A DNA stretch of 64,000 nucleotides from Promethearchaeota archaeon. GTDB taxonomy: Archaea > Asgardarchaeota > Lokiarchaeia > Sigyniarchaeales > SOKP01. Where the stretch lies: assembly GCA_016839915.1 (NCBI GenBank), contig JAEOTH010000151.1, positions 139-64,138 of the forward strand, written 5' to 3'. The notes under the pieces are model-generated. The model did not search any database. It was given only the letters and a program-made list of their open reading frames with translations, and had not been told where the DNA came from. Below, in pieces: positions 8,298 through 53,013 of this stretch (position 1 is the first letter of the stretch; each line of letters begins with the position of its first letter). Position numbers and translations under genes: made by a program.

Positions 8298-8337
8298 ATT
8301 TTATTTCAGATTTAACCATTTTTTATGGTGATTATAA

Positions 8338-8619
8338 TTGAAAGAAAGCAATGTTTTTGAAAAAGAATTGGAAGCATATAGAAAAGAGATTGATAAGATT
8401 GATAATAAAATTATTGAACTCCTAAATAAAAGAGGGATAATTGCACAAAAAATTGGCAACCTTAAATATCAAATGAAAAAGGATTTATCTCAACCTCAAA
8501 GAGAAAAAGATATCATCGAACGAATAAAGGATAATTCAGGAATTTTAAAATCTGTGAGCATTGAAGCAATATGGAAGGAAATTATAAATGCGTGCAAGCT
8601 CATCCAAGATACTCCATGA
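8338..8619 (+). CDS. Chorismate mutase (AroQ type)
   Basis: LEAYRKEIDKIDNKIIELLNKR...IGNLK...QREKDII; GGTGA SD before the TTG start. Confidence 0.88.
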   Translation: MKESNVFEKELEAYRKEIDKIDNKIIELLNKRGIIAQKIGNLKYQMKKDLSQPQREKDIIERIKDNSGILKSVSIEAIWKEIINACKLIQDTP

Positions 8620-9866: not shown

Positions 9867-10646
9867 ATGAAAATTATTAAGAAATTTGAGAAATTGATAA
9901 AACATTCATTTTTCAAAATTTTAAAGATTTTAAATATTTATGATAAAGAATATGAAATCTTTAAGAGAGAATTTAGAGAGGAAAAACAGTTTAGGATAAT
10001 TTATGAAAAATGTAAAGCTTATACTATGACTTCAATATTTAGAATGTACTCATTATATAAATCGATAGAATATATAGTAAAAAATAAGATTCCTGGAGAT
10101 ATTGTCGAATACGGAGTATGGAGAGGAGGAAGTATGATGGTATGTGCTTTATCTTTATTGTATTTCAAAGATATAAATAGAAAAATATATTTATATGATA
10201 CTTATGAAGGACATGTAGAATCTACAATAAAGGATGTTAGTTATCGCTGTAAAGATGCAATAGAACTAGTAAAGCCTTCTTAAGGAAAAAAATGGCAAAT
10301 TTTTGTATATATCTTTAACAGAAGTGAAAAAAAATTTATATTCGACGGGTTATCCCAAAGAAAATCTAATTTTTATTAAAGGAAAAGTAGAAGACACAAT
10401 TCCCAAGACTATTCCCAAACAAATTTCATTACTTCGTTTAGATACTGATTGGTATGAATCTACATACCATGAATTAACTTATTTTTCCCTAAATTAGTAT
10501 TAAATGGAGTATTGATCATAGATGATTATGGAGCTTGGAAAGGTGCAAGAGATGCAACCAATCAATACTTAAAAGAAAATCGTGTAACGCTTTATCTAAA
10601 TAGAATTGATTTACCTGGAAGATTGGGTATAAAAACGCATAATTAA
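9867..10646 (+). pseudogene. TylF/MycF (macrocin O-methyltransferase) family pseudogene in three pieces
   Basis: Piece 1 (9867-10283) has IPGDIVEYGVWRGGS...LYDTYEG. Piece 2 (10303-10497) has KGKVEDTIP...ISLLRLDTDWYEST. Piece 3 is in another frame: FPKLVLNGVLIIDDYGAWKGARDA...RLGIKTHN* (stop 10644-10646). Confidence 0.88.
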
Positions 10647-11597: not shown

Positions 11598-13055
11598 TTA
11601 CTTTGTTTTATTTAAATTTGACATTCCAATAGCTTTAATAATTTTTGATTGTTCATGAGATGTAGTGGTTGTCTTCTCAAGATGATATTCTTTTATTATT
11701 CTAAATTCCTCTAACTTCTCGGGATTTTCCCCTATCAAATTATTTTTTTCTTTAGGATCCGATTTCAAATTAAATAAGAATTCAGCTTCTTTTTCCTCAT
11801 CAAAAATATATTTCCATTCATGCTTTCTTATAGCAAACAAAATTAAACCTTCCTTACGGTTCCTTTTCATAAGTCTATTTTTCTGATAACATTCTGATAT
11901 AATTACTTCCTTTCTTATTGGATTCTCTCCTTTAATTATTGGTATTAAACTGCTTCCTTGAAAATTCTCAGGAATATCTATTCCAAAATAATCTAAAATT
12001 GTTGGTGCAATATCCATAATTTGAACAACATCTTTTATATCTTTTTCAATTGGTTTTTTACCCAATTCAACAATTATGAGTGGAATTTTCAAGATTTCAT
12101 CATAAACACTCCCCTGGTGCCCAAATAACCCATGCTCATAAAAACTTTCTCCATGATCAGCAGTTATAATCACTAGACAATTATCTTTAAATCGATTTTT
12201 TATTAGTTCTATAAGTTTTTTCAAATATTCATCTACAAAATGAATTTCGGCATCATAAAGAATTTTTAGATCCTCAATCATTCTAGAAGTTGTTTTAACT
12301 TCAAGAGACATTGAATAAACTTTATTTGTTAAAAACTCCCTCTCAGAAATACTAAAATCTTTTTCTCTAAAATTTATAACATTTTTAGCTGGTGGATTAT
12401 AAGGACTATGAACATCCATGAAATGAGCCCACAGGAAAAATGGTTTTTTAGAATTGTTTAAAAATGAAATTACTTTGCTAACAATATAAGGAGCATTATA
12501 CGCAATAGGAGTAAACGGGAGTAAAATCTCAGTTAGGAAAGGTATTTTTTTTCTCAGCCACAATTTTATTTTATTAAATCCTTTGAGTCTATATATTAAC
12601 TTACTCGATAATCTATTTGAATCCAAGATCTTTTTTACATGATAACTTAGAAGTTGTTTAATACTATCATTTGATTTTCTTTTGTATCTCTCACCATCTA
12701 AAAACACATCAAATCCTCGATCATAGTTGAATATTCTCCCCAAATTAGGATTACTATGAATTGAATATGTAAAAATTCTATTTTCTCTTAAAAGCTGAAC
12801 CAATGAAATCTTTTGTGATGGTAATGGACTATATCCACCATCTAAAAATGGCAAAATTGAAGTAAAAAGCGATGAAAAAGCAGTAGGTGTTTCAGGTCCA
12901 TTTGTTATCGTATTTAAAAAGATTTTTCCCTCTTCAGCAAATTTATTTAAATTTGGAGTAGTATTTCGGTGATACCCATAGCATTTTAGATGATCAGCTC
13001 TTAAAGCATCAATAGTTATTAATATTACTGCTTTTCTATGTAGATCCTTATTCAT
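11598..13055 (-). CDS. Sulfatase-like hydrolase/transferase (AlkP superfamily), Thr at the nucleophile position
   Basis: LITIDALRADH, GPETPTAFSSLFTS (no CxPxR), HFMDVHSPY, ITADHGESF.EHG..GH, MDIAPTIL; no signal peptide. Confidence 0.88.
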   Translation of the reverse strand: MNKDLHRKAVILITIDALRADHLKCYGYHRNTTPNLNKFAEEGKIFLNTITNGPETPTAFSSLFTSILPFLDGGYSPLPSQKISLVQLLRENRIFTYSIHSNPNLGRIFNYDRGFDVFLDGERYKRKSNDSIKQLLSYHVKKILDSNRLSSKLIYRLKGFNKIKLWLRKKIPFLTEILLPFTPIAYNAPYIVSKVISFLNNSKKPFFLWAHFMDVHSPYNPPAKNVINFREKDFSISEREFLTNKVYSMSLEVKTTSRMIEDLKILYDAEIHFVDEYLKKLIELIKNRFKDNCLVIITADHGESFYEHGLFGHQGSVYDEILKIPLIIVELGKKPIEKDIKDVVQIMDIAPTILDYFGIDIPENFQGSSLIPIIKGENPIRKEVIISECYQKNRLMKRNRKEGLILFAIRKHEWKYIFDEEKEAEFLFNLKSDPKEKNNLIGENPEKLEEFRIIKEYHLEKTTTTSHEQSKIIKAIGMSNLNKTK

Positions 13056-25197: not shown

Positions 25198-26628
25198 TCA
25201 CTGAATTTTCTTAGTTTTTTTAAGATCTTTAATTATATTACTTATTTTAGTTCTCTCTGTAATTTGAGAAAATTTTATTCTTAATAAATCTTTAAAAAGT
25301 TTCACAATTTCAGGCTTTTCAGATACTAAATTTTGAATTTCATTTGGATCTTTTTCAAGATCATATAATTCTTCAATACCACCATGAATTTTACCACAAT
25401 ACTCACATAAAGCATTCTTTTCTGAATCTGAATAAATATATTTGTATTTTTTTGTTCTAATAGCTTTTTTTTGTTGTGTATGATATTCTTCGATAAAGAT
25501 TAACTCCCTCAAATCGTCTACATTTTCAATTACATCTAAAAGAGATTTTCCATCTAAATCCTGTGTATGTAATATTCCTAGATAATCTAAAAGAGTGGGT
25601 GTAATATCAATATGTTGTACAAAATTATCAATAATTTTATGGTTATAGTTAGGAAGTCTAATAATGAGTGGAACACGAATGCTCACATCATAAAGACCAT
25701 GATGATCAAAATAGATTTCGTGTTCTAAAAGACTCTCACCATGATCAGAAGTAATTAAAATTATGGTATTATCATATATGTTTTGTTGTTTCAAAATTTT
25801 TAATATTTTTCCAATTTCTTTATCAACAAATTTAATACAGGCATCATATCTTAGTAACATCTCTTTACACGATTTAATACCCGTTGTGAACTTTTTTAAT
25901 CGTGACTTCCATAAACCATTGATACTTTCTAATATCCAATCGATTGTGCAATCACTTTCATAAGTCCAATCTTCTAATTCTTTTAAATCATCAATTGGAG
26001 GTTCATAAGGCATATGAACACCCCAATAATGTAAGAAAATAAAAAAAGGTGATTTTTTTTTTGAAAATTCAATTATCTTGTCTTGAGCAATTTTTGTATA
26101 ATGTATATCCCTTGTATATTTTAATGGTTTATAATTTCTTGATGAATATCCAGATTTAATTCTAGATTTAACAGCTACCTTTTTAATAAATTCTAATATC
26201 TTAGGGGAAAATAATTTAAGCTTTTTTTTAATATTTCCTTTAAAAGATGGATCCTGATATCTTGACAGAAAATCGTCAAATCCTTCATGGTACATTCTTT
26301 TTATAAAATCTATGCAAATTGAATTATAACCTTTTCTAGCTAAAATTTCTTGCAAAAAATCTGACCTTAATCTATTCAAAACCTCAATTTCTGTATCATC
26401 TACTTTATTTCCATGAGATGTTAAACCATGACTACTTGGGTATTGCCCTGTAAGTAGAGAAATTAAGGAAGGATCAGTTGTATTAATTGTAGAGAATGCA
26501 TTCTTAAATACTATATTTTCTGAAGCAAATTTATCAATATTAGGAGTGGTTGATTTATTATATCCATAGAATGAAACATTTTTCATTCTCATAGCATCTA
26601 TTATAATTAAGATAATGTTTGGAAGCAT
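25198..26628 (-). CDS. Sulfatase-like hydrolase/transferase (AlkP superfamily), Thr at the nucleophile position
   Basis: PNIILIIIDAMR, INTTDPSLISLLTG (no CxPxR), HYWGVHMPY, TSDHGESL.EH..YFDHHG, ELYDLEKDP.E; no signal peptide. Confidence 0.88.
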   Translation of the reverse strand: MLPNIILIIIDAMRMKNVSFYGYNKSTTPNIDKFASENIVFKNAFSTINTTDPSLISLLTGQYPSSHGLTSHGNKVDDTEIEVLNRLRSDFLQEILARKGYNSICIDFIKRMYHEGFDDFLSRYQDPSFKGNIKKKLKLFSPKILEFIKKVAVKSRIKSGYSSRNYKPLKYTRDIHYTKIAQDKIIEFSKKKSPFFIFLHYWGVHMPYEPPIDDLKELEDWTYESDCTIDWILESINGLWKSRLKKFTTGIKSCKEMLLRYDACIKFVDKEIGKILKILKQQNIYDNTIILITSDHGESLLEHEIYFDHHGLYDVSIRVPLIIRLPNYNHKIIDNFVQHIDITPTLLDYLGILHTQDLDGKSLLDVIENVDDLRELIFIEEYHTQQKKAIRTKKYKYIYSDSEKNALCEYCGKIHGGIEELYDLEKDPNEIQNLVSEKPEIVKLFKDLLRIKFSQITERTKISNIIKDLKKTKKIQ

Positions 26629-26842: not shown

Positions 26843-28495
26843 ATGTCAAGTAATGGAAATACTAAAGAAAGACGAAAAATTACTGTTGAACAAAGAATTT
26901 TAGCTAAAAATTCAGTCCTCTCCTTTATAATTACTTATAGTAATTATTTCTCTTCAATGGTTACTTCTTTTATGGTTGCTAGATTAATTACACAGGATGA
27001 ATGGGGATATTTAATACTAGCTACATCATATTTAATGATAATTTTAACTATATTAGGTTTCATACCTCCCGGATTATCTGCTTCTCTAAATTATTATATT
27101 CCGAGATATTTAGCTTTAAACCAGAAAGCAAAACTGAAATCCTTTATAAAAAATGCATTCATCATTAGGATATCTATTTTAACAGTAGCTTTTGTTATTA
27201 GTATAATAGTGTTTATATTCTTCTCTAATTTATTCTCAGTTAATTTATTTAAATATGAACATTTATTAGTTTTACTCTCTCCTCTTATCTTAATTGATGG
27301 AATTGACAAAATGATCGGTGAAATGAATGTAAGCTTTAATCGATTTAATTTCGTTTTAATTCTTATTATGATTAAAAATCTTTTCAACATTTTTTTGTTA
27401 ATATTTTGTATAATTTTCTTTTATGATGTTCAATTAGAGACAATTGTTCTAATTAATATTATTACCGCAGCTATACCTTTTATAATTAATGCTCTCGTAT
27501 CAATTTTTTATTTAAGATCTAAATTTAGAGATGTTGAAGATGAAATACATACTTTGAAAGAAACTATAAAGGATATATCTATTTACGGAACTCATTTGAG
27601 TATTACAAATTTACTTGATAGATTTGCTGGTGAGATTAGAGTTCAAACAATAGGGATATTTGGGACTACTGACTTTGTAACTGGATATAATATAGGTAAT
27701 CATTATAGGGAAGTTTCAACAGGTTCAATTGGAGCATTGAATAAGCCACTAATAATCTCTTTTGCTGGCTTATACGCTACTAAAAAGCATGATCAAATCG
27801 ATAGAACTTATAGAGTACTGTTAAAATATATGATATTTATGCAATTAGTAATTACTGGATTCTTGATATTCTTTACTGATTTTTATCTCTCTTTTATCTA
27901 TGGTGCATCCTATCTAAAATTTTCATTATTAGTAAAACTGATTTTAATATCAATAGCATTTAGAGTGCCTGTCACATATTTTTTCAGTCTTTTAAAAGCT
28001 AGTGAAAAAGTAAAAAATTTAATACCTATAAATTTTGTTCTTACTATAGCCAGTCTTTCTTTTTTTTTATTTGGATTAATTTATTTTGGAGTTATAGGGG
28101 CAATTGTAGGAATAATTATAATAAATTGTATAACAACAATCTTCATTCTTGTAGCTACTTTAAGAATTCTTAAAATAAAAGTAGATGCTAAAATGACACT
28201 TCTTCAGTTTTCTATTTTTTTCATTGCAGTTATTATTTCTCTAATAATGGAGACCCTATTCTTAAATAACCTCAATTTAATGATACTTCAAACTTTAAAT
28301 CTGACTTTTTTTGAAAAATTTAATTTCTTTTCTTTAGGGACATTTCTAATAATTTTTTTAACTTTAAACATATTTTTAAAAATACTTACTCGTTCTGACA
28401 TTGAAAGAATAGAAACTTTTTTTGATAAACCAACATTCAGTCATAGAACAATTCGAAAAGGATTAGGCTTTTTAAAAAAAATTTTTAAAAAATAA
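26843..28495 (+). CDS. Oligosaccharide flippase (Wzx/MOP family)
   Basis: About 14 hydrophobic segments; LAKNS...ARLITQDEWG...LNYYIPRY pattern; lies in the glycan cluster. Confidence 0.85.
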   Translation: MSSNGNTKERRKITVEQRILAKNSVLSFIITYSNYFSSMVTSFMVARLITQDEWGYLILATSYLMIILTILGFIPPGLSASLNYYIPRYLALNQKAKLKSFIKNAFIIRISILTVAFVISIIVFIFFSNLFSVNLFKYEHLLVLLSPLILIDGIDKMIGEMNVSFNRFNFVLILIMIKNLFNIFLLIFCIIFFYDVQLETIVLINIITAAIPFIINALVSIFYLRSKFRDVEDEIHTLKETIKDISIYGTHLSITNLLDRFAGEIRVQTIGIFGTTDFVTGYNIGNHYREVSTGSIGALNKPLIISFAGLYATKKHDQIDRTYRVLLKYMIFMQLVITGFLIFFTDFYLSFIYGASYLKFSLLVKLILISIAFRVPVTYFFSLLKASEKVKNLIPINFVLTIASLSFFLFGLIYFGVIGAIVGIIIINCITTIFILVATLRILKIKVDAKMTLLQFSIFFIAVIISLIMETLFLNNLNLMILQTLNLTFFEKFNFFSLGTFLIIFLTLNIFLKILTRSDIERIETFFDKPTFSHRTIRKGLGFLKKIFKK

Positions 28496-28534: not shown

Positions 28535-29644
28535 TTGCGAAGCAGTTTGGAAAAGATCATATATATTGGATTTTATAATGAAAATGTTTCTAGAAGTGTT
28601 AAATTTGCAAACCTTTTATTGAAAAAAAATGTGGAGGTAATTAAATATCAACTTACTAAAAGGGAGAGATTTTTCTTTTTAAAAAAGTTTAAAAGAGTTT
28701 TTCATAGAATTTTAAAAGAAAGAATAGATGCAATAATTTACTTCTCTGATTTCTTTTCACCAATAATTCTTTTTTTAAAATTATTAACAAAACTAAAAAG
28801 AATTCCGTTAATAAATAAATTTGACATTTCTGGTCTTTATTTTAAATTAGATCGTAATTATAATAAAATTAGCACATTTCAGTATTTGAAATCTTATTTT
28901 TATGACAAAATTGAGCTTTTCTTGTCGGATATGATATTTTTTTTAACTCAAGCACAGCTTAATCATTTTCAGAAACGGTTTAATGTTAAAAAGAGGAAAT
29001 GTTATAGTATGTATCTTGGTACTAATGAATCAATCTTTTATCCCAGGAAAAAAGAAAAAAGATTTGAATACCCAATTATCGTAGGATATTGGGGATCATA
29101 CATTCCAATACATGGAGTGGAATATATTGTCGAAGCTGCTAAGATTTTAAAGGATGATGAAAATATTAAATTCTTAATGATGGGAAGAGGATCTAAACTT
29201 GATCACATTATTAGACAAAAGGAAAAATACAATTTAAGTAACTTAAATATCTTAGGATTTCTTCCTTTTAAGGAATTTATGGAAAATATGTCGAAAATTG
29301 ATATTAGTTTAGGGATATTTGGAAATTCAAAAAAATCAAATTGGTGTGTTACTAATAAAGTATATGAGGCTCTTGGTATGGGGCTTCCAGTTATAACACG
29401 TTTAAGTTCAGCTAATCTTGAATTATTTGGAAAAGAACAAAACATCTATTTCTGCAAACCGGCTGATCCAAGATCATTATCAAATGCTATTCATAAATTG
29501 GCCTATAATCGAGTCATTAGAGAGGAGATCGGGAAAAATGGCTATAATACATTCATTAAAAAATGCTCAGATTCAGTTCTTTCAAATGAGTTATATTTTT
29601 CTATTGATAATTATCTTAAGGGCAGAAATATTTCAAAACTATAA
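28535..29644 (+). CDS. Glycosyltransferase family 4
   Basis: YWGSYIPIHGVEYIVEAA, ISLGIFG, NKVYEALGMGLPVIT. Confidence 0.88.
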   Translation: MRSSLEKIIYIGFYNENVSRSVKFANLLLKKNVEVIKYQLTKRERFFFLKKFKRVFHRILKERIDAIIYFSDFFSPIILFLKLLTKLKRIPLINKFDISGLYFKLDRNYNKISTFQYLKSYFYDKIELFLSDMIFFLTQAQLNHFQKRFNVKKRKCYSMYLGTNESIFYPRKKEKRFEYPIIVGYWGSYIPIHGVEYIVEAAKILKDDENIKFLMMGRGSKLDHIIRQKEKYNLSNLNILGFLPFKEFMENMSKIDISLGIFGNSKKSNWCVTNKVYEALGMGLPVITRLSSANLELFGKEQNIYFCKPADPRSLSNAIHKLAYNRVIREEIGKNGYNTFIKKCSDSVLSNELYFSIDNYLKGRNISKL

Positions 29645-29782: not shown

Positions 29783-30022
29783 ATGTCTGAGGAAGAAAAT
29801 AAGGTTGAATATACAACGGTATCGATTCCTAAGCCTCTTGTTCAAAAAATAAAAAACAGGATGAAAGGCACTGGTTTTTCAAGTGTTTCTAGCTATGTTA
29901 CATATGTTCTTAGACAAATCTTATCTTCTATTGAAGAAGATGAACGAACTACAAGTGCCTTTACTAAGGAAGAAGAAGAAAAAGTAAAACAACGTCTAAG
30001 AGATTTAGGATATATTGATTAA
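29783..30022 (+). CDS. Ribbon-helix-helix (CopG-like) protein with C-terminal RLRDLGY tail
   Basis: TTVSIPKPLVQKIK...GFSSVSSYVTYVLR fits the RHH pattern; ends EEEEKVKQRLRDLGYID. Confidence 0.85.
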   Translation: MSEEENKVEYTTVSIPKPLVQKIKNRMKGTGFSSVSSYVTYVLRQILSSIEEDERTTSAFTKEEEEKVKQRLRDLGYID

Positions 30023-30077
30023 AATAAAAATAATCAATTTAAAATATAAAACCAATTAATGAAAGGGAAAAGAGATA

Positions 30078-31226
30078 ATGATTCAACCGCATGGTGGGAC
30101 TTTAGTTAATAAAGAATTGCCAAAATTCGAAAAAGAAAGAATTTTAGCAGAAGTTGCTGAATTTGAAAAGATAAGCGTCAAACCAGAAACACTAAAGGTG
30201 ATTAAAAATATATCTTTTGGTGTGTTTAGCCCATTAGAAGGATTTATGAATGAAAATGATTACCATTATGTTCTTGAGCACATGTATTTAGAAAACAATG
30301 TAGCATGGTCAATTCCGATTACACTGGATGTTTCAGAAGAGGAAATCAAGGATATAAGTGCTGATGATAAAATAATTCTTACAAACGATAGTGGAACACC
30401 TATAGCATTAATGAAGATAGAGTCAATTTATGATTACAATAAAAAAGAATATTCTGATAAAGTATACGGCACGTTAGATAAGAACCATCCAGGAGTTTAC
30501 AATGTTTTTAAATATAAGGAAAAATTCATTGGTGGTGAAATATTTTTAATTAACGAACCTAAACCAGTTTTTCTTGATTTATACCTGAAACCTATTGAAA
30601 CAAGAGTATTATTCAAACAGAAAGGTTGGGATAGAGTAGTAGCATTTCAAACAAGGAATCCCCCTCATTTAGGTCACGAATATGTTCAAAAAGCAGGATT
30701 AACTTATGTAGATGGCTTATTTATCAATCCAGTGATTGGAAAGAAAAAAGTTGGAGATTTTTTGGATGAAGTAATAATAAAATCATATCAAGCTTTAATA
30801 AAGGAATACTATCCTAAAGATAGAGTTGTCTTAAGTACATTTGAAACAGAGATGAGATATGCTGGACCTAAAGAAGCAATCTTTCATGCAATTACTAGAA
30901 AGAATTTTGGTTGTGATCATATTATTATTGGACGAGATCATGCGGGAGTCGGTGATTATTATGGACCTTATGATGCTCACAAAATATTTGATCTATTCCC
31001 TGATCTTGGTATAGAACCAATTAAATTTAGATCATTTTCAAAATGTAATAAATGTAATTCAATAGTAAATGATAAAATTTGTCCACATCCACCAGAAATG
31101 CAAAGATTCTTTGCTGGAAGAGAAATACGTGCTGCATTACAATCGGGAAAAGCACCGAGCCCAGAAGTAATGCGTCCCGAAATCGCAGAAGTCATATTAA
31201 AATATGAACATCCATTTGTTTCTTAA
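30078..31226 (+). CDS. sat: Sulfate adenylyltransferase (ATP sulfurylase)
   Basis: PHGGTL, FSPLEGFM, AFQTRNPPHLGHE, MRYAGPKEAIFHA, GRDHAGVG, MRPE. Confidence 0.97.
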   Translation: MIQPHGGTLVNKELPKFEKERILAEVAEFEKISVKPETLKVIKNISFGVFSPLEGFMNENDYHYVLEHMYLENNVAWSIPITLDVSEEEIKDISADDKIILTNDSGTPIALMKIESIYDYNKKEYSDKVYGTLDKNHPGVYNVFKYKEKFIGGEIFLINEPKPVFLDLYLKPIETRVLFKQKGWDRVVAFQTRNPPHLGHEYVQKAGLTYVDGLFINPVIGKKKVGDFLDEVIIKSYQALIKEYYPKDRVVLSTFETEMRYAGPKEAIFHAITRKNFGCDHIIIGRDHAGVGDYYGPYDAHKIFDLFPDLGIEPIKFRSFSKCNKCNSIVNDKICPHPPEMQRFFAGREIRAALQSGKAPSPEVMRPEIAEVILKYEHPFVS

Positions 31227-31271
31227 ATTATATTCCAATTTTAAATTAAAAACTAAGAGCTATAGTGAATA

Positions 31272-32660
31272 ATGATCCCAAACAAGAAAAAATTAGTCAT
31301 TATAGGATTAGATTGCGCTACACCTAGAACATTATTCGAAGATTTCTTTGATGATTGCCCTAATATAAAAAAAATGGTAGAAAATGGAGTTTATGGAAAA
31401 TTAAGATCATGTAATCCACCGATTACTATTCCAGCATGGATGGTTATGTCGACTGGTAAGAAAGCCGGAACATTGGGATTATATGGATTTAGGCATAGAA
31501 AAGAGAATTTATATGATGATTATTGGATTGCTACTTCCTATAATATCAAAGAACCTAAAGTATGGGAAATTCTAACAGAAAAAGGTTTAAAATCTTGCAT
31601 TTTGGGCTTACCTCCAACATATCCCGTTCAACCATTGAATGGCTATCTTGTTTCTGGGTTTATTACACCTGATATAACATCAAGCTATACATATCCTCCA
31701 ATATTAAAAGAAGAAATTAAAGAAAAAGTTGGAAAATACATTTTGGATGTAAATTTCAGAGTGGAAGATAAAACAATTTTATTGAAAGAAATTTATGAAA
31801 TGACAAAAGTTCAATTTAAAACCGTTAAATATTTGATGCAAAATAAGGATTGGGATTATTTTAAATTTGTAATTATTGGATTAGACAGATTTCACCACGC
31901 ATTTTGGAAATTTTATGATAAAAAACACCCCAAACATGAACCCGGCAATAGATTTGAAAATGAAATGAGAAAATATTATCAATACTTAGATCAAGAAGTT
32001 GGAGAAATCTTAGATTTAACTGATGAAAATACAATTACCATGATTGTATCTGATCATGGCGCTAAAGCAATGAAAGGTTTAGTATGTGTAAATATGGCTC
32101 TTGAAGATTTAGGATTACTAAAATTTAAAGTTAGACCAAAACCAGGAACGAGATTAGCAAACGCTGAAATTGATTGGGATAATACTTATGCGTGGGGATG
32201 GGGAGGTTACTATGCAAGAATTTTTCTAAATGTTGAAGGGAGAGAACCTCATGGAATTATTAAAAGAAAAGATTATGAGAAAATGAGAGATGTAATTATA
32301 AAAAAACTGAAATCAATAAAAGATAATAATGGTAATCCAATGAATACAATTGTATATAAACCCGAAGAATTGTTTGAGTCTATAAATGGAAATCCACCAG
32401 ACTTAATGGTCTATTTTGATAACTTAAATTGGAGATCCGCTGGAACAGTAGGTTATGATTCAATGTATTTAGATGAAAACGACACTGGACCTGATGATGC
32501 TGTACATGATTGGTTTGGTGTTTATGTTTTATATAACCCTATGAAGAAATTGGGGAATAATTTAGGAACTAAAAGTATACTTGATATTGCTCCAACATCT
32601 CTAAAAATATTAGGTTTTGAAATTCCTAACGATATGGAAGGTACTGTTATAAAATTTTAA
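31272..32660 (+). CDS. Alkaline-phosphatase-superfamily (type I phosphodiesterase/nucleotide pyrophosphatase-like) protein
   Basis: IIGLDCAT, PPITIPAW..MSTG, LDRFHHAFW, IVSDHG, GPDDAVH, ILDIAPT. Confidence 0.88.
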   Translation: MIPNKKKLVIIGLDCATPRTLFEDFFDDCPNIKKMVENGVYGKLRSCNPPITIPAWMVMSTGKKAGTLGLYGFRHRKENLYDDYWIATSYNIKEPKVWEILTEKGLKSCILGLPPTYPVQPLNGYLVSGFITPDITSSYTYPPILKEEIKEKVGKYILDVNFRVEDKTILLKEIYEMTKVQFKTVKYLMQNKDWDYFKFVIIGLDRFHHAFWKFYDKKHPKHEPGNRFENEMRKYYQYLDQEVGEILDLTDENTITMIVSDHGAKAMKGLVCVNMALEDLGLLKFKVRPKPGTRLANAEIDWDNTYAWGWGGYYARIFLNVEGREPHGIIKRKDYEKMRDVIIKKLKSIKDNNGNPMNTIVYKPEELFESINGNPPDLMVYFDNLNWRSAGTVGYDSMYLDENDTGPDDAVHDWFGVYVLYNPMKKLGNNLGTKSILDIAPTSLKILGFEIPNDMEGTVIKF

Positions 32661-32673
32661 AAAAGCAAAGAGA

Positions 32674-33213
32674 ATGAAAATGGAATATAAAGGCTTTACG
32701 TTATGGTTTACTGGACTTCCCTGTTCTGGGAAAACTGTGCTTGCAAATGCTGTTGCTGAGGATTTAAAAGCAAGAGGGATGAAAGTAGAAAGACTTGATG
32801 GAGATATTGTTCGAAAAAGTCTAACAAAAGACTTAGGTTTCACTGAAGAAGACCGAAATATGAACATTGAAAGAGTAACATTTGTTGCCAAACTTTTAAC
32901 CCGCAATGGTGTTGCTGTTCTTGCTTCATTTGTATCACCATATAATAAAATTAGAGCTTATTCTCGAGAAGAGATTGGAGAATATATTCTTGTGTATGTT
33001 AAATGTTCTCTTGAAGAATGCGAAAATCGAGATATTAAAGGAATGTACGCAAAAGCTAGAGCTGGAGAGATCAAAGATTTTACTGGAATTGATCATCCAT
33101 TCGAGGAACCAGATCATGCGGATATAATAGTCGAAACAGACAAGCAAGCTGTTGAAGAAAGTAAAAAAATTATTCTGGAAGCTTTAAATGATATGGGATT
33201 TTTACCGCACTAA
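32674..33213 (+). CDS. cysC: Adenylyl-sulfate kinase
   Basis: LWFTGLPCSGKT, LDGDIVR..L..DLGF...DR..N, RDIKGMY, FTGIDHPFEEP. Confidence 0.97.
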   Translation: MKMEYKGFTLWFTGLPCSGKTVLANAVAEDLKARGMKVERLDGDIVRKSLTKDLGFTEEDRNMNIERVTFVAKLLTRNGVAVLASFVSPYNKIRAYSREEIGEYILVYVKCSLEECENRDIKGMYAKARAGEIKDFTGIDHPFEEPDHADIIVETDKQAVEESKKIILEALNDMGFLPH

Positions 33214-33240: not shown

Positions 33241-34164
33241 TTAAATAATTTTTTTTATTTGTTCTATAATTGCATTCTCATTTAAACCGTAAGAATTTAG
33301 TAAGACTTCTCTTTTTCCTGATTCACCAAAACAATCATTTATTCCAACGAATTTTATAATTTTTGGGTTATTATTAGAAACAATTCTAGCGATAATGCTT
33401 CCAAAACCACAATAAATATTGTGTTCTTCTATTATAACAATTGCTTTGACAGATTCTATCTCATTTAATAGAGATTTTTCATCAATTGGTTTAATAGTTG
33501 GAAAATTTATTACTTTAATCGAAGTTTTTCGTTGTTGTTCAATTAATTCTGCAGATTTTAATGCTAATAAACTTCCATATCCAGTTCCAATTAAACAAAT
33601 GTCTTTCCCTTCTTTTATGATATCAGGCTTTCCGAGACAGAATTTATAGTTATCTTCGTGAATTTTAGAGAATGAACCTCTGGGTAATCTCACATAAAAT
33701 GGTTCTTCAGATTTGAATATATATTCTAAAATTTCAACTAATTCAATATTATCTGAAGGGATTAAGATATTTAAATTGGGGAGAGATGCCATTATACTTA
33801 AATCTTCTAAGGCATTATGCGTACTCCCATCCTCTCCAACAATACCTCCATGTGTAGTTATGATCTTAAAATTTAAATTGTCATGAGCCGCAAATCTAAT
33901 AAATTCCCACGCTCTTCCTGTTGTAAACATAGAAAATCCACTTACTACTGGAATTTTCCCAGATATTGCAAAACCTAATGCAGTTCCCAACATATTTTGT
34001 TCAGCAATTCCCATATTATAAAATCGATTAGGAAATGCCTTAGCGAATTTAAATGTTCTTGTAGAGGAGGATAAATCAGCATCTAAAACAACAATATCAT
34101 TATTTTTTTTTCCTATTTCAACTAAATAATCTCCAAAAGTGTCCCTAAGAGCTGGTTCAGCCAT
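33241..34164 (-). CDS. Transketolase, C-terminal (pyrimidine-binding) subunit
   Basis: VLDADLSSST, NMGIAEQN, GEDGSTH, IEEHN...GFG. Confidence 0.93.
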   Translation of the reverse strand: MAEPALRDTFGDYLVEIGKKNNDIVVLDADLSSSTRTFKFAKAFPNRFYNMGIAEQNMLGTALGFAISGKIPVVSGFSMFTTGRAWEFIRFAAHDNLNFKIITTHGGIVGEDGSTHNALEDLSIMASLPNLNILIPSDNIELVEILEYIFKSEEPFYVRLPRGSFSKIHEDNYKFCLGKPDIIKEGKDICLIGTGYGSLLALKSAELIEQQRKTSIKVINFPTIKPIDEKSLLNEIESVKAIVIIEEHNIYCGFGSIIARIVSNNNPKIIKFVGINDCFGESGKREVLLNSYGLNENAIIEQIKKII

Positions 34165-35022
34165 TTAATTATCCCCCCTTTTCAATCTTATCTTGATATT
34201 TTCTAATTCTTTAAGAGCCGCATTATATTCTTCTGTAGTTGGGGCTTGACCATGGAATTCTTTAGTATGTTGCATAAATGAAACATCAGAACCTTTAATT
34301 AGATAAGATATAATGACTTTTGGTTTACCGATTATAGATTTAGAACTTTCAAATCCATCTAACATTTCTTTAAGATTTGACCCATCTGTTTCAATAACCT
34401 CCCAACCAAAAGCTTTCCATTTTTCTGCTAATGGTTCTAGAGCCATTACTTCTTCAGTTGAACCATCGCTTTGTATTCCATTACGGTCTACGATCGCTAT
34501 TAAATTATCTAATTTATAATGGCTAGCAGACATTGCAGCTTCCCAAATAGCCCCTTCATTTAGTTCTCCATCACCTAAAAGAACATATATAAACTTTTGT
34601 GTATTATTTAATTTAGCAGCTAAAGCACAACCAACTCCAATAGATAATCCCATTCCTAAAGATCCAGTTGATATCTCTACTCCAATTTCTGAATTTTTAA
34701 CGGGATGGCCTTGTAATTTCGAGCCAAATTGTCTTAATGTGAATAATTCTTCTCTTTTTATATATCCTAATTTGGATAAGACTGCATAAAGCGCAGGGGC
34801 TGCATGCCCTTTACTTAAAATGAATATATCTCTTTCTTTCCATAAAGGATTTTTGGGATTTATTCTCATAATATTGTTATAAAGGAGATAGATTATATTA
34901 GCACATGATAACGAACCACCTAGATGGCCTGATTGAGCTTCGTATATCATTCTTAAAATATCTTTTTTAATATCCAGTATATCAGTTAAGATTGTCTGCT
35001 CATCAGCTTTAGATAAATCCAT
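34165..35022 (-). CDS. Transketolase, N-terminal (TPP-binding) subunit
   Basis: SGHLGGSLS, LSKGHAAP, LQGHP, TGSLGMG, GDGELNEG..WEA. Confidence 0.94.
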   Translation of the reverse strand: MDLSKADEQTILTDILDIKKDILRMIYEAQSGHLGGSLSCANIIYLLYNNIMRINPKNPLWKERDIFILSKGHAAPALYAVLSKLGYIKREELFTLRQFGSKLQGHPVKNSEIGVEISTGSLGMGLSIGVGCALAAKLNNTQKFIYVLLGDGELNEGAIWEAAMSASHYKLDNLIAIVDRNGIQSDGSTEEVMALEPLAEKWKAFGWEVIETDGSNLKEMLDGFESSKSIIGKPKVIISYLIKGSDVSFMQHTKEFHGQAPTTEEYNAALKELENIKIRLKRGDN

Positions 35023-35043
35023 TCTAATACATTAATGAGTTAA

Positions 35044-36042
35044 TTACTTTTTATTCATTTCAGTTAATACAAAATTATGAAGTTTTTCAGCTTTATAGAA
35101 TTCAACAGGAGGTAGAGTAGCAGTAAGTGAGGCTGCATAAAGTGCAAGTTTTACTCCATCTGCAACAGAAATTCCAGATGCTAATGATAATCCTAATACG
35201 GCCATAATAACACTACCAACAGCCACATAACTTCTGACTGGTTGTTTTAAAATAGGATTAAATTTTTCTACTTTTTCGATTTCACTTGAGAAAAGAAAAG
35301 ATTCAGTTTCTAAATAATTCAATAGGAGATTTTTACATTTAGATGAGTTTAAAATCCTTTTACCAGCAATAGTGATACTTGTTTCATTGCAACAATCGAT
35401 AGAAAACGTATCCAATGCTTTCTGAAGATTCATCCTAATTAAATCCACATTTTCGTATAGATAGTAATTAAATTTAGTAGGACGGGCAATTATAGGTATT
35501 TTTTTAAATTTTTCCTTTAAAAAACGTATTAATTTCTGAATAAACAGATCCTCAAAAATACCTTCTAAGCCATAATCTAAAATTAATATTGCACCTAAAT
35601 CTTGAGACGCATTAGCAATGAGATCTTTAAATTTGTCTCTTATTTTTTGAGAAAATATACCATTATAATTTGTTTCTAAACGTAAAAGATGTTGATTCAT
35701 AGCTTTTATTCGAGTTATTTGGGGGGTTTTTATCTTTTCCTCTACAATAATTCCAGAAGACTCTACTTTTAACTCTTCAATCCTTTTTAAAAAAAACTCA
35801 CCTTCAAAATCATTACCAATAATAGTACAAACTTCAGGAATTCCTCCTAAAGACTTAATATATTGTAGTACTAGTCCAATTGCTCCAATATAAACACTAG
35901 TATTCTCTATTTTTACATTCGGAACGGGTGCATCAGGAGAGATTCTATCTGTATATCCGATTATATACTTATCTATTAAGGCATCCCCAATAACTAACAC
36001 TTTCTTATTTTTCCATTTAGAAATCCCATCTATAAGAGCCAT
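35044..36042 (-). CDS. RfaE/HldE kinase-domain-like PfkB family protein with degenerate catalytic motif
   Basis: KVLVIGD.LIDKY..G..DRISPDAPVP and QHLLRL match the heptose-7-P kinase domain; the DVTGAGD motif is replaced by SYVAVGS. Confidence 0.75.
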   Translation of the reverse strand: MALIDGISKWKNKKVLVIGDALIDKYIIGYTDRISPDAPVPNVKIENTSVYIGAIGLVLQYIKSLGGIPEVCTIIGNDFEGEFFLKRIEELKVESSGIIVEEKIKTPQITRIKAMNQHLLRLETNYNGIFSQKIRDKFKDLIANASQDLGAILILDYGLEGIFEDLFIQKLIRFLKEKFKKIPIIARPTKFNYYLYENVDLIRMNLQKALDTFSIDCCNETSITIAGKRILNSSKCKNLLLNYLETESFLFSSEIEKVEKFNPILKQPVRSYVAVGSVIMAVLGLSLASGISVADGVKLALYAASLTATLPPVEFYKAEKLHNFVLTEMNKK

Positions 36043-36051
36043 ATTATTTAT

Positions 36052-36708
36052 TCATTTTTTTAATTCATTTTGTAATTTTTCCCAATCTTTAAGAAAATCT
36101 TCTAATCCTTGATCAGTATTAGGATGTTTGAACATTTTTTCAAGAACAGCAAATGGAATAGTAGCAATATGAGCTCCAACTTTTGCAGACTCAATAACAT
36201 GGCGCGTGTTTCTCACTGAAGCAACAATTAATTCAGATTTAAAATCATAAGCATTTAAAATGTCCATACATTCCCAAAGAAAATCAATTTCATTCTGACC
36301 ATTATCCATTAACCTTCCTATGAAAGGACTTATATAAGAAGCTCCAGCTTTAGCAGCAATTAAAACCTGATTCTGCGAAAATACAAGAGTTACGTTTGTC
36401 TTAATTCCTTCTGGTTCAAGAATTTTAACAGCTTTAATACCTTCTTTTGTAAAGGGAATCTTGATCACAATATTGGGGGCAATTTTAGCTAATTCACGAG
36501 CTTCTTTAACCATTTCTTCTGTATCCAATCCAATAACTTCTCCACTGACAGGACCATCAACTAATTCACATATTTTTCTTAGTTGATCAATTGGCTCAGC
36601 GCCTTCCCTAGCTAAAAGGGTAGGGTTTGTAGTAACTCCGTCGATTATTCCTAATTCTAGCATTTCTTTTATTTGTTTTAAATTAGCAGTGTCTATAAAA
36701 AACTTCAT
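36052..36708 (-). CDS. tal: Transaldolase (small FSA/TalC type)
   Basis: [38 protein letters not shown]. Confidence 0.92.
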
Positions 36709-36751
36709 GATATATCACGATTACATTTAGTGAATAAATTAATATTTGATT

Positions 36752-37300
36752 TTATATATTTATAGCAAATTCTTTTAAGTTTTTAAATATCATGTCCGGT
36801 ATTATCTGACCAATTTCGTTTTGTTCCTCTTTCCCATAACCAGTTAAAACTAAAACTTTTTTACATTTTGCATTTTTTCCTGTTTGAACATCATTTAAAG
36901 TATCTCCAACCATATATGAACTAGTTAAATCAATATTATGTTTTAATACAGCTTTTAAAATCATTCTTGGATTTGGTTTCCTACAATCACATGGACCACT
37001 AAAATCGGGATGGTGAGGACAATAATAAATATCATCTAATTCAACTCCATTTTGCTTTAATCTTTTAATCATCTTATCATGTATCCTCTCAAGAGTTTTT
37101 TCTGGAAAATACCCCCGTGCTATACCAGCTTGATTGGTAATAACAATAAGTAAAAAACCTTTCCGCTTTAGAATTTTTAAAGCTTCAATTGATCCCTCAA
37201 TAAATTCAAAATTTTTTGGACTGGAAAGATAACCTACTTCTTTATTAACTACACCATCTCGATCTAAGAAAATTGCCTTCTCTTTTTCACTCTTTTTCAT
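36752..37300 (-). CDS. gmhB: D-glycero-D-manno-heptose 1,7-bisphosphate phosphatase
   Basis: [24 protein letters not shown]...CDCRKP, MVGD; ATG at 37300 is the likely start. Confidence 0.92.
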
Positions 37301-37922
37301 CAGAAAATCTAAGCAATTCAATAATTTTATTGGGATCTTGAGCTTTTAAAATGGTGCTTGAGCTTGTTAAAATATCTGTATTTTTTAATAATTTTGCGTT
37401 TGTTAAATTTATTCCACCGTCAATATCAATAATAAAATCATATTTATTCTTATATTCAGCTAATTTATTTACCTTCTCTACAGAACTAATTAGAAACTTC
37501 TGGCCTGACCATCCAGGTTTTACACTCATCACTAAGATAATATCGATTTTATTTAAGTATGGTATAATTTCAGAAATGACAGTCCCGGGGTTTATAGCGA
37601 GACCAACCTTTTTATTATTTTTTTTTACTTCTTTTATAATGACATCCCTTTTGGTGCCAATTTCAAAATGAAATAAAAATATATCAATATAAGTTATGAT
37701 TTTTTTAATATAATCACAAGGGTCAACTACCATTAAATGGGCGATTATAGGAGTATTATAAGTCTCTTTTATTATTCGAAAAACATGGAGATTATTATTT
37801 ATATTATTAACAAATTTACCATCCATAACATCTACATGAATATAATCGAAGCCTTCTAATCCTCTTAAAAGATCTACTGAAAAGTCTTCTAAGGCATGTA
37901 CAGAAACTGCGATATATTTCAT
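37287..37922 (-). CDS. rpe: Ribulose-phosphate 3-epimerase
   Basis: [44 protein letters not shown]. Confidence 0.92.
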
Positions 37923-37932
37923 AGATTATCGA

Positions 37933-38499
37933 TTACCCAAAAAGTTCTTCCTCTACTAAATAACAAATAATATGACCTACAGTTATATGTCCTTCTTGAA
38001 TTCGTGGAGTATCTGTGGAGGGTATTTTTAAACAAAGATCAGTTATTTCTTCAATTTTATTTGGTTTTTGGCCAGTAAAACCTATTGTTATGGCTCCTTT
38101 CTCTTTAGCTTTCAATAAACCTTTAATCACATTTGGAGAATTGCCAGAAGTACTAATTCCAATAGCAATATCTCCTTCTTCTACAAATGAAGCCACTTGT
38201 CTTTCAAATATTATATCATACCCATAATCATTTGCAATAGCAGTTACCACTGATGTATTTGTATGAAATGCTAGAGATGGAAGAGATCTACGATCTTTAT
38301 AGAATTTACCCACAAACTCAGCTGCTATATGTTGAGCATCAGCTGCACTCCCACCATTTCCAAATAGTACTACTTTTTTTTTTCTTTTATAAGCATTTAT
38401 TATTTCTTTGGCAATTTTTGTGATAATGGAAGTTTGATTTTTAAGTTCTTCTTTTACTTTAATATTTTCCTCTAAAATTGAGATTATTTCGTTTTCCAT
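37933..38499 (-). CDS. gmhA: D-sedoheptulose 7-phosphate isomerase
   Basis: GNGGSAADAQHIAAEFVG, TAIANDYG, ISTSGNSPNV, TPRIQEGH. Confidence 0.96.
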   Translation of the reverse strand: MENEIISILEENIKVKEELKNQTSIITKIAKEIINAYKRKKKVVLFGNGGSAADAQHIAAEFVGKFYKDRRSLPSLAFHTNTSVVTAIANDYGYDIIFERQVASFVEEGDIAIGISTSGNSPNVIKGLLKAKEKGAITIGFTGQKPNKIEEITDLCLKIPSTDTPRIQEGHITVGHIICYLVEEELFG

Positions 38500-51372: not shown

Positions 51373-53013
51373 CTACCTTAGACAGAAACCACATTTACCA
51401 AATGATTTTATTGTTTGTTCCCAACAATGATTATGATATGCCCTATTACAATGGGGACATTCTGCGTGACAGTTATCATCACCAGCAATTTTTTTAGTAC
51501 AGCTTGGACATTCGATTTTATGGCATATAACACACGAAACTACTGAAACTTCGAAAATTTTCTTAGAGATAAGATTAAATAAATCGACGAGATAACTAAA
51601 AGGTGTCCAATCTTTAAAAAAGTCATCAAATGATGTATGTAAATCATCTTTTATTTTCTCATGAGCTTCAAGTTCGAATTCATTTATCACTTTCACATCC
51701 GGCATTTTCATAGGATAATCAATTGGTAAAGTAATTTGAAATTCAAAAGTTAGATCTTCAGTTTTCATTTTTCCTTTCATTTCTACGAGTAATGTAGCAG
51801 TTGAGGGGTTGTATTCAATTTTTTTATAATGATCTTTTAATAAATCTATTTCAAAGTTAATTCTTGAGTTTTTATCAACTAACCAAGAGATTTCCCTTAC
51901 GATTTCAACAGACTCAGACATATTTTCTTCCCAGTTTTTATAGACTTTTAATTCGGTAACGGGGACTTGGATAATTTGCTGTAATTCCGGAGATAAATCA
52001 ATTTTAGGAGGTTTTGGATAAGGCTCTAAATCTATGTTTAAGAAATATTCTTTAAAACCGTACGTTAACATATGGACCTTTAGAGCAGTCACACTATCAT
52101 GTATTTTTTCACATTGATATTCTCCTGATATTTTTTTGGATTGTACTTCAATCTCTTTAAGAAAAAGCAATTTTTTCTCTAATTCATGTAAGAGATCAAC
52201 AATATGAGAAGGTTGCTTTGATTTCCACTCCTTTAAAATGTTTAAGATTTTATAGGGCTCTCCTAAAATTCTTCGTACTTCATTTGGGAAAGTTACAATT
52301 GGTTTTTCGGGGTAATTTGTAAAATCTATTTGAATGATAAATGTACTAGTTAAAGTTATCGTAATATAAATATTGATTTCAGCTTCCTTTGTACCGATTT
52401 GGTCATAAGCATATTCTTGTTGGATTAAACTCAACTCTGTATTAATCTCAATGCTAACTGGTGCACCTTCATCAACGATATCAGATTTAAGAGTGGTTTT
52501 AGAATCATCAACAGAATTCTCAGTTATAGAACTTCCGGAATCTTTGGAAGTATAAAACACTTCATCAGGAGAATCTGATTGTGTAATATATTCCTCATAT
52601 TCAAAATCTGGGGGGTATGCATCTAAATCAGGTGTTAAAAATTCTTCTTTTTCAGTAGAATTATCTTGTCCAATAGGTATTAATTCTTCCTCAGAATTCA
52701 TTTTTGGCGTCTCTAAAGTTTTTTCTATAATCTCTTTAAGCTCGTATACAATATCAACTACATTAGAAGTAGGTGTCCAATTAATTAAGGAATTAAGCTG
52801 AAAATCCCCTAATAAGTCTTTAATTACAGAGTGATAAATCAAATTTGGAGGTGTGCTTGGAAAGTTTTCATCGAATTTAATTTCTAACTCATATTTTTTT
52901 TCAGGAGTTTCATAAACATAACCATATAGATGTGCAATCTCTCCTGAAACCATCCAAAATGAAAATTTTTTTGCGATCTTTTGGGCTTCTTTTAATATTC
53001 TTTCTTTATCCAT
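51373..53013 (-). CDS. Multi-UEV/RWD (E2-like fold) protein with C-terminal C4HC3 RING-like finger; candidate E3 ubiquitin ligase
   Basis: Four ~100-aa units with [F/Y]Pxx(x)P (FPSTPP, YPEKP, YPKPP, YPMKMP) and a downstream Trp + helix (NWTP, EWKS, NWEE, DWTP). C-terminus is CVIC-x21-CPHC-x4-H-x2-C-x10-CGFC. Confidence 0.75.
   Translation of the reverse strand: MDKERILKEAQKIAKKFSFWMVSGEIAHLYGYVYETPEKKYELEIKFDENFPSTPPNLIYHSVIKDLLGDFQLNSLINWTPTSNVVDIVYELKEIIEKTLETPKMNSEEELIPIGQDNSTEKEEFLTPDLDAYPPDFEYEEYITQSDSPDEVFYTSKDSGSSITENSVDDSKTTLKSDIVDEGAPVSIEINTELSLIQQEYAYDQIGTKEAEINIYITITLTSTFIIQIDFTNYPEKPIVTFPNEVRRILGEPYKILNILKEWKSKQPSHIVDLLHELEKKLLFLKEIEVQSKKISGEYQCEKIHDSVTALKVHMLTYGFKEYFLNIDLEPYPKPPKIDLSPELQQIIQVPVTELKVYKNWEENMSESVEIVREISWLVDKNSRINFEIDLLKDHYKKIEYNPSTATLLVEMKGKMKTEDLTFEFQITLPIDYPMKMPDVKVINEFELEAHEKIKDDLHTSFDDFFKDWTPFSYLVDLFNLISKKIFEVSVVSCVICHKIECPSCTKKIAGDDNCHAECPHCNRAYHNHCWEQTIKSFGKCGFCLR

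Follow-up and report, generated by a model that had tools for sequence, protein, structure and literature searches.

The locus considered here raises two questions: what is an enzyme of the alkaline phosphatase (AlkP) superfamily doing between the two genes that make 3′-phosphoadenosine 5′-phosphosulfate (PAPS), and which enzymes spend this PAPS? The stretch analysed, hereafter the window, comprises 64,000 nucleotides of contig JAEOTH010000151.1 of a Promethearchaeota archaeon (assembly GCA_016839915.1, positions 139 to 64,138, forward strand). This part of an Asgard genome forms an extensive glycan island, with a GC content of ~27% and with many glycosyltransferases, nucleoside diphosphate (NDP)-sugar enzymes and methyltransferases identified by Pfam. 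The closest homologs bear the labels Promethearchaeota, Thor-, Hermod-, Odin- and Hodarchaeota. The genome of the organism is 93.9% complete and is distributed over 221 contigs. The four genes of the cassette under study are listed first, followed by the two glycan genes found upstream of them:

29783-30022 (+): CopG/ribbon-helix-helix (RHH)-like small protein, 79 aa; first cassette gene
30078-31226 (+): sat, ATP sulfurylase, 382 aa (PUA_2 PF14306 and ATP-sulfurylase PF01747, E 1e-84; NCBIfam NF003166, 489 bits for a cut-off of 387)
31272-32660 (+): AlkP-superfamily enzyme of the nucleotide pyrophosphatase/phosphodiesterase (NPP) type, cytoplasmic, 462 aa (Phosphodiest PF01663, 143.5 bits for a cut-off of 23)
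32674-33213 (+): cysC, adenosine 5′-phosphosulfate (APS) kinase, 179 aa (APS_kinase PF01583, E 3.7e-59; TIGR00455, 223 bits for a cut-off of 138.7)
26843-28495 (+): Wzx-like flippase (Polysacc_synt, Pfam)
28535-29644 (+): GT4 glycosyltransferase (Glycos_transf_1, Pfam)

An Asgard copy of a known sulfate-activation cluster

The cassette genes are separated by gaps of 55, 45 and 13 bp, and an AT-rich spacer of 138 bp precedes the CopG/RHH-like gene. The initial annotation had described sat, an AlkP gene (its product is called AlkP below) and cysC just downstream of a flippase and a GT4 gene, as a PAPS-making operon set in a glycan locus. The open reading frames (ORFs), the Pfam and NCBIfam assignments and the glycan genes all around bear out this description. 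The cassette itself is not new to the literature. The window carries an Asgard copy of a sulfate-activation cluster already described in Thermococcales, where, as far as the available text of the reports goes, measurements on the enzyme that occupies this slot (TON_1705) showed inorganic pyrophosphatase activity (PMC8268124, PMC4463584, PMC9653972). The published order, a small CopG-like gene, sat, a PF01663 gene and cysC on one strand, is the one found in the window.

The available part of the report on Pyrococcus yayanosii describes a five-gene cluster composed of PYCH_17520 (putative copG), 17530 (ATP sulfurylase), 17540 (DHH phosphoesterase, shown to be a phosphatase of 3′-phosphoadenosine 5′-phosphate (PAP or pAp), i.e. 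a pApase), 17550 (“type I phosphodiesterase/nucleotide pyrophosphatase”) and 17560 (APS kinase), with tauE adjacent, and names similar clusters in Ferroglobus, Aciduliprofundum (A. boonei), Aeropyrum and Ignicoccus (PMC8268124). The annotation of PYCH_17550, which is the Pfam name of PF01663, goes with the statement that the protein is “speculated” to degrade pyrophosphate (PPi) (PMC8268124, text available in part). The corresponding genes of Thermococcus onnurineus are given, in the accessible text, as TON_1704 (APS kinase), TON_1705 (pyrophosphatase), TON_1706 (PAP phosphatase) and TON_1707 (ATP sulfurylase) (PMC4463584). The likeness of these clusters to the window is one of architecture: a copG-like gene, ATP sulfurylase, in some cases the DHH pApase, a PF01663-type enzyme and APS kinase follow each other in this order, often accompanied by TauE, and the Pfam family name is the same. 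This identical architecture, seen for example in the DHVE2 locus L117 whose AlkP is 53% identical to the window protein, suggests that the middle enzyme is orthologous to TON_1705 and PYCH_17550. The window differs by its setting in an Asgard glycan locus and by the lack of a DHH pApase gene. None is present in the 45-bp gap between sat and the AlkP gene, and two DHH queries gave 0 tblastn matches in the organism’s own genome.

The arrangement was examined in two samples, the best 30 loci from 201 Asgard genomes, 67 of which have an AlkP match at E≤1e-20, and, separately, the best 80 loci of a scan in which each prokaryotic species was represented by a single genome and which identified at least 597 genomes with AlkP relatives. 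Among the 30 Asgard loci cysC follows the AlkP gene in all cases and sat precedes it in 29, the 30th locus stopping inside AlkP. Around the AlkP gene of the 80 loci, sat was found in 74, cysC in 73 and a small RHH-like gene in 69. With such counts in loci from many phyla the gene arrangement is far beyond chance, and the observation is real. The 80 loci span Asgard lineages, Bathyarchaeia, Methanomethylicota, Hydrothermarchaeota, DHVE2, Nitrososphaeria (Nitrosopumilales), Aminicenantes/Saccharicenans, Anaerolineae, Clostridia (Eubacteriales) and Desulfotomaculum copahuensis. Outside Asgard the AlkP is 50-56% identical to the window protein, about as much as sat and cysC are to theirs, and across domains identity ranges from 50 to 89%, the AlkP evolving as slowly as its two neighbours. 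The cassette is a mobile, horizontally spread unit, whose four genes travel together since the flanks vary between loci. Profiling the co-occurrence of this AlkP with sat and cysC, a check proposed in the initial annotation, thus disclosed a conserved cassette, and with the natural fusions described below an association tighter than could be foreseen from the window.

Fusions were found on both sides of the AlkP. The 120 long homologs listed from 210 at E≤1e-30 are all Sat-AlkP fusions (PUA_2, ATP-sulfurylase and Phosphodiest; 821-1173 aa; Pfam content re-checked on three), and those that are named belong to Anaerolineae. When the 777-aa protein of D. copahuensis served as query, 13 of its 120 top-ranking matches were AlkP-CysC fusions (Phosphodiest and APS_kinase; 641-777 aa). 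The AlkP is therefore joined to each of its neighbours, in gene order. Other genes accompany the cassette less regularly. A TauE/SafE or Na/sulfate symporter gene often adjoins it. A DHH-family gene occurs in 8 of the 80 loci, so that it is an optional member, and lies between sat and AlkP except in L104, where it follows cysC. The order RHH-sat-DHH-AlkP-cysC, with or without TauE, is found in L031, L045, L075-L078, L082, L088 and L117. The cassette DHH gene matches the PAP phosphatase of Methanothermococcus thermolithotrophicus (PDB 8a8k, E 3.4e-39), which, like TON_1706, resembles the DHH gene of some cassettes and has no counterpart in the window. An Inositol_P gene directly follows cysC in L037. 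Close relatives of the window’s organism (L127, L128, L129, L133, L134, L137) have RHH-sat-cysC without AlkP, and in families f7 and f27 Sulfotransfer_3 genes come after sat-cysC.

The first gene of the cassette had been called RHH in the initial annotation. The 79-aa protein had no match in Pfam and NCBIfam searches. Short of a family assignment, this identity is plausible from the succession strand-helix-helix and from a profile alignment that weakly matches the RHH domain of NikR (E 0.05). An alignment of 18 sequences from Archaea and Bacteria (A3) has P16, L19, S34, V35, L72, L75, G76 and Y77 as invariant residues, and the C-terminal tail L-x-x-L-G-Y-(I/L)-(D/E) is present in 18/18. Since cassettes that have no AlkP (L133, L142) retain the L-x-x-L-G-Y tail as well, a function linked to AlkP alone is less likely. 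The protein is probably a regulator of the cassette.

Fold and active site of the NPP-type enzyme

The AlkP protein fits the NPP branch of the alkaline phosphatase superfamily by its PF01663 score, an NPP-like fold, the position of a Thr nucleophile and six Asp/His residues. Its AF2 model has a predicted local distance difference test (pLDDT) score of 94.2. The nearest solved folds are those of ENPP7, ENPP4, the Xanthomonas NPP (Xac NPP) and ENPP6 (Z ~30, 339-347 residues aligned, root-mean-square deviation 3.0-3.3 Å), followed by phosphonoacetate hydrolase (Z 26), PafA (24.5) and sulfatases (22-25), and Foldseek matched the model to ENPP1/3 at E ~1e-17. Thr52 (PPITIPAW) shares a column with the nucleophilic Thr of human ENPP1 (KTFPN) when the two are aligned by profile. 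Among 30 aligned orthologs and paralogs D14, D205, H209, D261, H262 and H412 are invariant, while position 52 is Thr, or Ser in two paralogs. We take the six invariant residues, which follow the pattern Asp, Asp-x3-His, Asp-His, His, to be the ligands of a bimetal centre. The protein begins right at the first β strand, and a signal peptide or membrane segment is not visible; the earlier description of a cytoplasmic AlkP protein with Thr at the nucleophile position stands. The gene is present in a single copy in its genome, as judged by tblastn. Plain phmmer against PDB sequences found no match at E≤0.01, NCBIfam gave none, and Pfam gave none to the P-loop sulfotransferase families PF00685, PF13469 and PF03567. 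Its relatives in the ESM Atlas are PF01663 clusters alone, labelled mostly bacterial. Co-folding of AlkP (alignment A1) with CysC (alignment A2) returned a score of 0.00, which is evidence for neither side.

The resemblance to NPPs (Xanthomonas NPP, ENPP1/3/4/6/7) thus extends to the fold, the Thr nucleophile and the six Asp/His, whereas sequence identity is 13-17%, the AlkP is cytoplasmic while NPPs are secreted, and it has ~115 extra residues in the cap region. Two further differences concern the active site. Arg73 and Arg75, in the motif Y-G-F-R-x-R, sit 21-23 residues past the nucleophile, presumably where NPPs carry the phosphate-binding Asn, which Arg would thus replace. Superfamily monoesterases add positive charge near that position. 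The sequence Y-G-F-R-H-R-K, 19-25 residues after the nucleophile, is confined to orthologs, a regular expression for the stand-alone form matching 110/120 and 102/120 proteins in two lists; Sat-AlkP fusions read Y-G-F-R-N-R-A at this place, and the eight commonest variants, which cover 82/120, all have F-R-x-R. The second difference is the residue after the nucleophile. In NPPs it is a Phe that stacks on the base of the nucleotide; in the AlkP it is Ile, Val or Cys, and no aromatic is found there.

An NPP fold with an NPP-type active site and positive residues near the nucleophile might also serve another nucleotide-directed helper hydrolase, either a PAP 3′-phosphatase or an enzyme that controls the level of APS or PAPS. 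In keeping with such a role, tblastn found in the organism’s own genome no DHH-type PAP phosphatase and a weak CysQ-like match alone (E 1e-4). We consider it improbable. The base-stacking Phe of NPPs is replaced, an operon that makes APS and PAPS would gain nothing from hydrolysing them, and the enzyme would be redundant in the 8 of 80 loci that carry a DHH PAP phosphatase besides the AlkP and in the one with an Inositol_P gene. A PAP phosphatase role was set aside on account of this co-occurrence.

Pyrophosphate removal or sulfuryl transfer

The reading we favour, with about even confidence, is that the window AlkP would be a dedicated PPi hydrolase pulling ATP sulfurylase. Sat would make APS and PPi, and CysC would convert APS to PAPS. 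Thr52, activated by the two-metal centre, would attack PPi and the resulting phospho-Thr intermediate would then be hydrolysed. Removal of PPi would relieve the hold of this product on the very unfavourable ATP sulfurylase reaction. Other enzymes would spend the PAPS on the sulfation of surface glycans; in this organism these are probably two sulfatase-like proteins of the Thr type that are encoded in the same glycan locus (see last section).

This reading is preferred because PPi hydrolysis was measured in vitro for the enzyme found in the same slot and gene order, and because the Sat-AlkP fusions parallel known fusions of ATP sulfurylase with pyrophosphatase (PPase). According to Table 1 of the report, whose text is available in part, TON_1705 acts on PPi with a pH optimum of 9.5, a kcat of 2.1 per s, a Km of 18.8 µM and a kcat/Km of 0.11e6 per M per s, values far short of those of Ton1914, the strain’s family I enzyme (PMC9653972). 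Experiment thus backs a helper role, but not sulfo-transfer. Fusions between ATP sulfurylase and inorganic pyrophosphatase occur in stramenopiles and haptophytes (PMC2275785). They resemble the bacterial Sat-AlkP proteins in joining a PPi-removing enzyme to ATP sulfurylase and differ in the partner, which is named just “inorganic pyrophosphatase” and not as an enzyme of the NPP fold (PMC2275785). Several properties described above are as expected for such an enzyme. Slow evolution, like that of sat and cysC, agrees with a small universal substrate, loss of the AlkP from RHH-sat-cysC cassettes of close relatives with a dispensable helper, and the extra positive charge of F-R-x-R suits a highly anionic substrate. 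In the cassettes with a separate PAP phosphatase, whether DHH or Inositol_P, the job of PAP removal is already filled.

A number of observations weigh against PPi removal as the native job. The enzyme of the published cluster is connected to the window protein by architecture and not by sequence comparison. Its kcat is hundreds-fold under those of ordinary PPases in the same table (PMC9653972, text available in part); in so promiscuous a superfamily, hydrolysis of PPi might be incidental. The organism’s genome also has a family I PPase (PF00719; contig C197, E 1.8e-49), although this argues neither way since T. onnurineus has one too. By hand tally, PF00719 was found in 15 of 50 Asgard genomes with the AlkP versus 76 of the 151 others. 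The idea that the AlkP substitutes for a missing soluble PPase was rejected, as these figures have no clear pattern and the host of the window has a PPase.

The remaining objections come from the distribution of the enzyme, and they bring in the alternative that it is a PAPS- or APS-dependent sulfotransferase. In this scheme the sulfuryl group of the phosphosulfate anhydride would move to Thr52 and from there to a conserved acceptor, which might be a nucleotide sugar or a sugar of the uronic-acid type, PPi hydrolysis being a side activity. We hold this view tentatively, as possible and no more probable than that, and it is a live rival. AlkP-CysC fusions are unexpected of a PPase, most of all in the sulfate reducer D. 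copahuensis, whose fusion is its only APS kinase and whose sat lies elsewhere. The Eubacteriales genome G201 has sat-cysC on one contig and, on another, RHH-AlkP with a uronate-type 4-epimerase and a UDP-glucose dehydrogenase (UGDH). In genomes of family f16 a 195-aa P-loop sulfotransferase-like gene (L142:8057-8644(-), L143:7038-7625(+); PF00685 ~28 bits for a cut-off of 22, PF13469 ~29 bits) stands between a DHH pApase gene and cysC, in the order RHH-sat-DHH-X-cysC, and thus occupies the slot of the AlkP in Freyarchaeia. Longer PF01663 paralogs (457-530 aa, 25-32% identity) cluster beside the PAPS cassette in several glycan loci. In the Asgard family f17 an AlkP-like gene (32-36% identity) is found in 5/5 genomes, beside sat in both fetched loci (L039, L044), and APS kinase was found in 0/5 of these genomes (75-83% complete), which hints that APS rather than PAPS may be used. 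The AlkP-like gene of L044 lies in a teichoic-acid-like locus, with CDP-glycerol glycerophosphotransferase and glycerol 3-phosphate (G3P) dehydrogenase.

A further point of this kind is the distribution of canonical sulfotransferases. In a hand tally, Sulfotransfer_3 was found in 34/35 Asgard genomes whose cysC is bona fide (E≤1e-40) and which lack an AlkP ortholog, versus 22/50 genomes with the ortholog (25/50 including marginal matches); each group represents ~8 families, although kin are not independent. In six AlkP genomes (G018, G042, G059, G066, G072, G079; 76-91% complete) no Sulfotransfer_3, PF00884 (sulfatase family) or AlkP paralog was found. Against this, 16 of the 25 AlkP genomes without a canonical sulfotransferase have PF00884 proteins that could serve, three more have AlkP paralogs, and PF01507-family genes occur in three of the six “consumer-less” genomes. 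PAPS reductase was tried as a consumer in the latter, and the result decides nothing: PF01507-family matches were found in 4/5 tested, but also in all 14 control genomes. PF00685 was found in 0/5 tested.

The sugar genes next to the cassette can also be read in favour of sulfo-transfer. In 16 of the 80 loci, mostly of Aminicenantes and relatives (L093, L095, L101, L103, L106-L110, L112, L116, L118, L119, L122, L124, L125), cysC is followed by a 315-aa short-chain dehydrogenase/reductase whose best NCBIfam match, below the equivalog cut-off, is the uronate 4-epimerase TviC; a UGDH gene comes next in L112, L122 and L125. A TviC-like epimerase and a UGDH next to the cassette provide a link to uronic-acid sugars, the sugar type sulfated in Halobacterium. 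Two further arguments are drawn from the literature. In the accessible text on P. yayanosii neither a sulfotransferase nor a sulfite-reducing enzyme is identified (PMC8268124), so that the published host resembles that of the window, where neither a sulfotransferase nor a reductive pathway was found. Fusions of ATP sulfurylase with a consumer of APS, namely APS reductase, are known as well (PMC2275785).

Sulfo-transfer meets difficulties of its own. The sole assay on record for an enzyme in this slot is PPi hydrolysis, and biochemical evidence for sulfo-transfer by a PF01663 protein is lacking. If the enzyme modified glycans, its archaeal and bacterial forms would not be expected to share 50% identity, short of a universal acceptor. 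If PAPS were the donor, fusion with Sat would join non-consecutive steps, and the AlkP can be lost while sat-cysC stays. A fuller version of the idea, in which this NPP-fold enzyme would be the long-missing sulfate-transferring enzyme acting via a sulfo-Thr formed from APS or PAPS on a universal acceptor such as UDP-uronic acid, with the PPase activity of the Thermococcus protein as a side reaction, appears to us rather doubtful. If sulfo-transfer were nevertheless true, a very large and widely transferred family would form a new class of sulfotransferases, which would explain the purpose of PAPS in Thermococcales and in many uncultured archaea without a known consumer. If instead the AlkP is a pyrophosphatase, the window holds nothing more unusual than the Asgard version of a described cassette, and organisms with a housekeeping PPase would nonetheless keep a second enzyme for PPi removal at their PAPS synthase, fused to it in some lineages. 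The value of the locus would then lie in pointing to the two Thr-type sulfatase-like genes, as the best candidates for Asgard glycan sulfotransferases.

Candidate users of PAPS and neighbouring genes

The initial annotation had noted the absence of a conventional PAPS consumer in the window and had proposed a search of the whole genome. In the own genome, the search with family profiles found no Sulfotransfer_1, _2 or _3, no PAPS_reduct and no NIR_SIR, with control genomes likewise silent for Sulfotransfer_2 (PF03567), and tblastn with five Asgard P-loop sulfotransferases found no match. An Arylsulfotrans match was sub-threshold (17.3 bits). PAPS is most likely spent on sulfation in this organism, because a canonical sulfotransferase, PAPS reductase and sulfite reductase were not found. 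The idea of a sulfation route that dispenses with a canonical sulfotransferase keeps its first half; its other half, the assignment of the route to the cassette AlkP, has to be set beside two Thr-type PF00884 proteins of the window that had been missed and are candidates for the same task:

25198-26628 (-): sulfatase-family protein, cytoplasmic, 476 aa, Thr at the formylglycine position (PF00884, E 2.3e-52)
11598-13055 (-): second sulfatase-family protein, cytoplasmic, 485 aa, Thr-type (PF00884, E 5.6e-39)

Both proteins open directly in the fold, and a leader is not visible. In the first, T-D-P-S-L aligns with S-T-P-A-R of choline sulfatase (7oz8) and with C-M-P-N-R of a sulfatase encoded on contig C63 of the same genome; in the second, T-P-T-A-F is found at the position of C-x-P-x-R. 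Thr thus stands for Cys or Ser, and Leu or Phe for the motif Arg, so that neither has the C/S-x-P-x-R motif. The Thr and the missing Arg imply that they cannot mature as formylglycine sulfatases. The C63 protein (~7131-8546 (-), ~524 aa), third PF00884 member of the genome, has the canonical C-M-P-N-R and is apparently a true sulfatase, the single one in the genome alongside the Thr-type pair.

Relatives of these two genes recur next to the cassette. A gene 56% identical to 25198-26628 is directly upstream of it in L061, relatives 36% identical to 11598-13055 lie beside the AlkP-less sat-cysC cassettes of L129 and L134, and similar sulfatase-like genes adjoin the cassette in L061, L096, L126, L129 and L134. 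PF00884 was found in 35/50 AlkP genomes versus 49/151 others, a hand tally of a family that includes true sulfatases.

Sulfotransferases of the AlkP fold, proposed as a new idea in the initial annotation, are already published for the sulfatase branch. As far as the available text of PMC11980604 goes, the sulfatase-like AlkP-superfamily proteins Agl30 (VNG1056C) and Agl31 (VNG1057C) sulfate the N-glycan of Halobacterium salinarum, on the evidence of deletion and heterologous expression, and neither their donor nor their catalytic residues are stated in it. That sulfatase-like AlkP-superfamily proteins act as sulfotransferases can be counted in favour of sulfo-transfer by the cassette AlkP; the two cases differ in that Agl30 and Agl31 belong to the PF00884 sulfatase branch, while the AlkP matches PF01663 only. 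They are closer to the PF00884 pair of the window: both are AlkP-superfamily (PF00884-type) proteins in an archaeal glycan locus, and the window proteins are soluble like Agl31, the comparison being one of family and locus and not of sequence. By this analogy the two Thr-type sulfatase-like proteins are candidates for the PAPS-using sulfotransferases of the glycan locus. The available text of a glycoproteomics paper on Prometheoarchaeum contains no passage on sulfated Asgard glycans.

Directly downstream of the cassette and on the opposite strand, positions 33241-38499 (-) encode a transketolase split into N and C halves, a PfkB kinase, a transaldolase, a HAD phosphatase, a ribulose-phosphate 3-epimerase and a SIS-domain protein. 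Together they resemble a block for the non-oxidative pentose phosphate pathway, which adjoins sat/cysC in the relatives L040, L127, L128 and L137 too.

Two minor observations were made elsewhere in the window. The 546-aa protein encoded at 51373-53013 (-) has a weak match to UQ_con (ubiquitin-conjugating enzyme) and adjoins isoleucyl-tRNA synthetase, a pair that recurs in the relatives L041 and L042. The 138-aa ORF at 9867-10283 (+) covers just positions 63-135 of the 264-position TylF O-methyltransferase profile and looks like a truncated or split gene.

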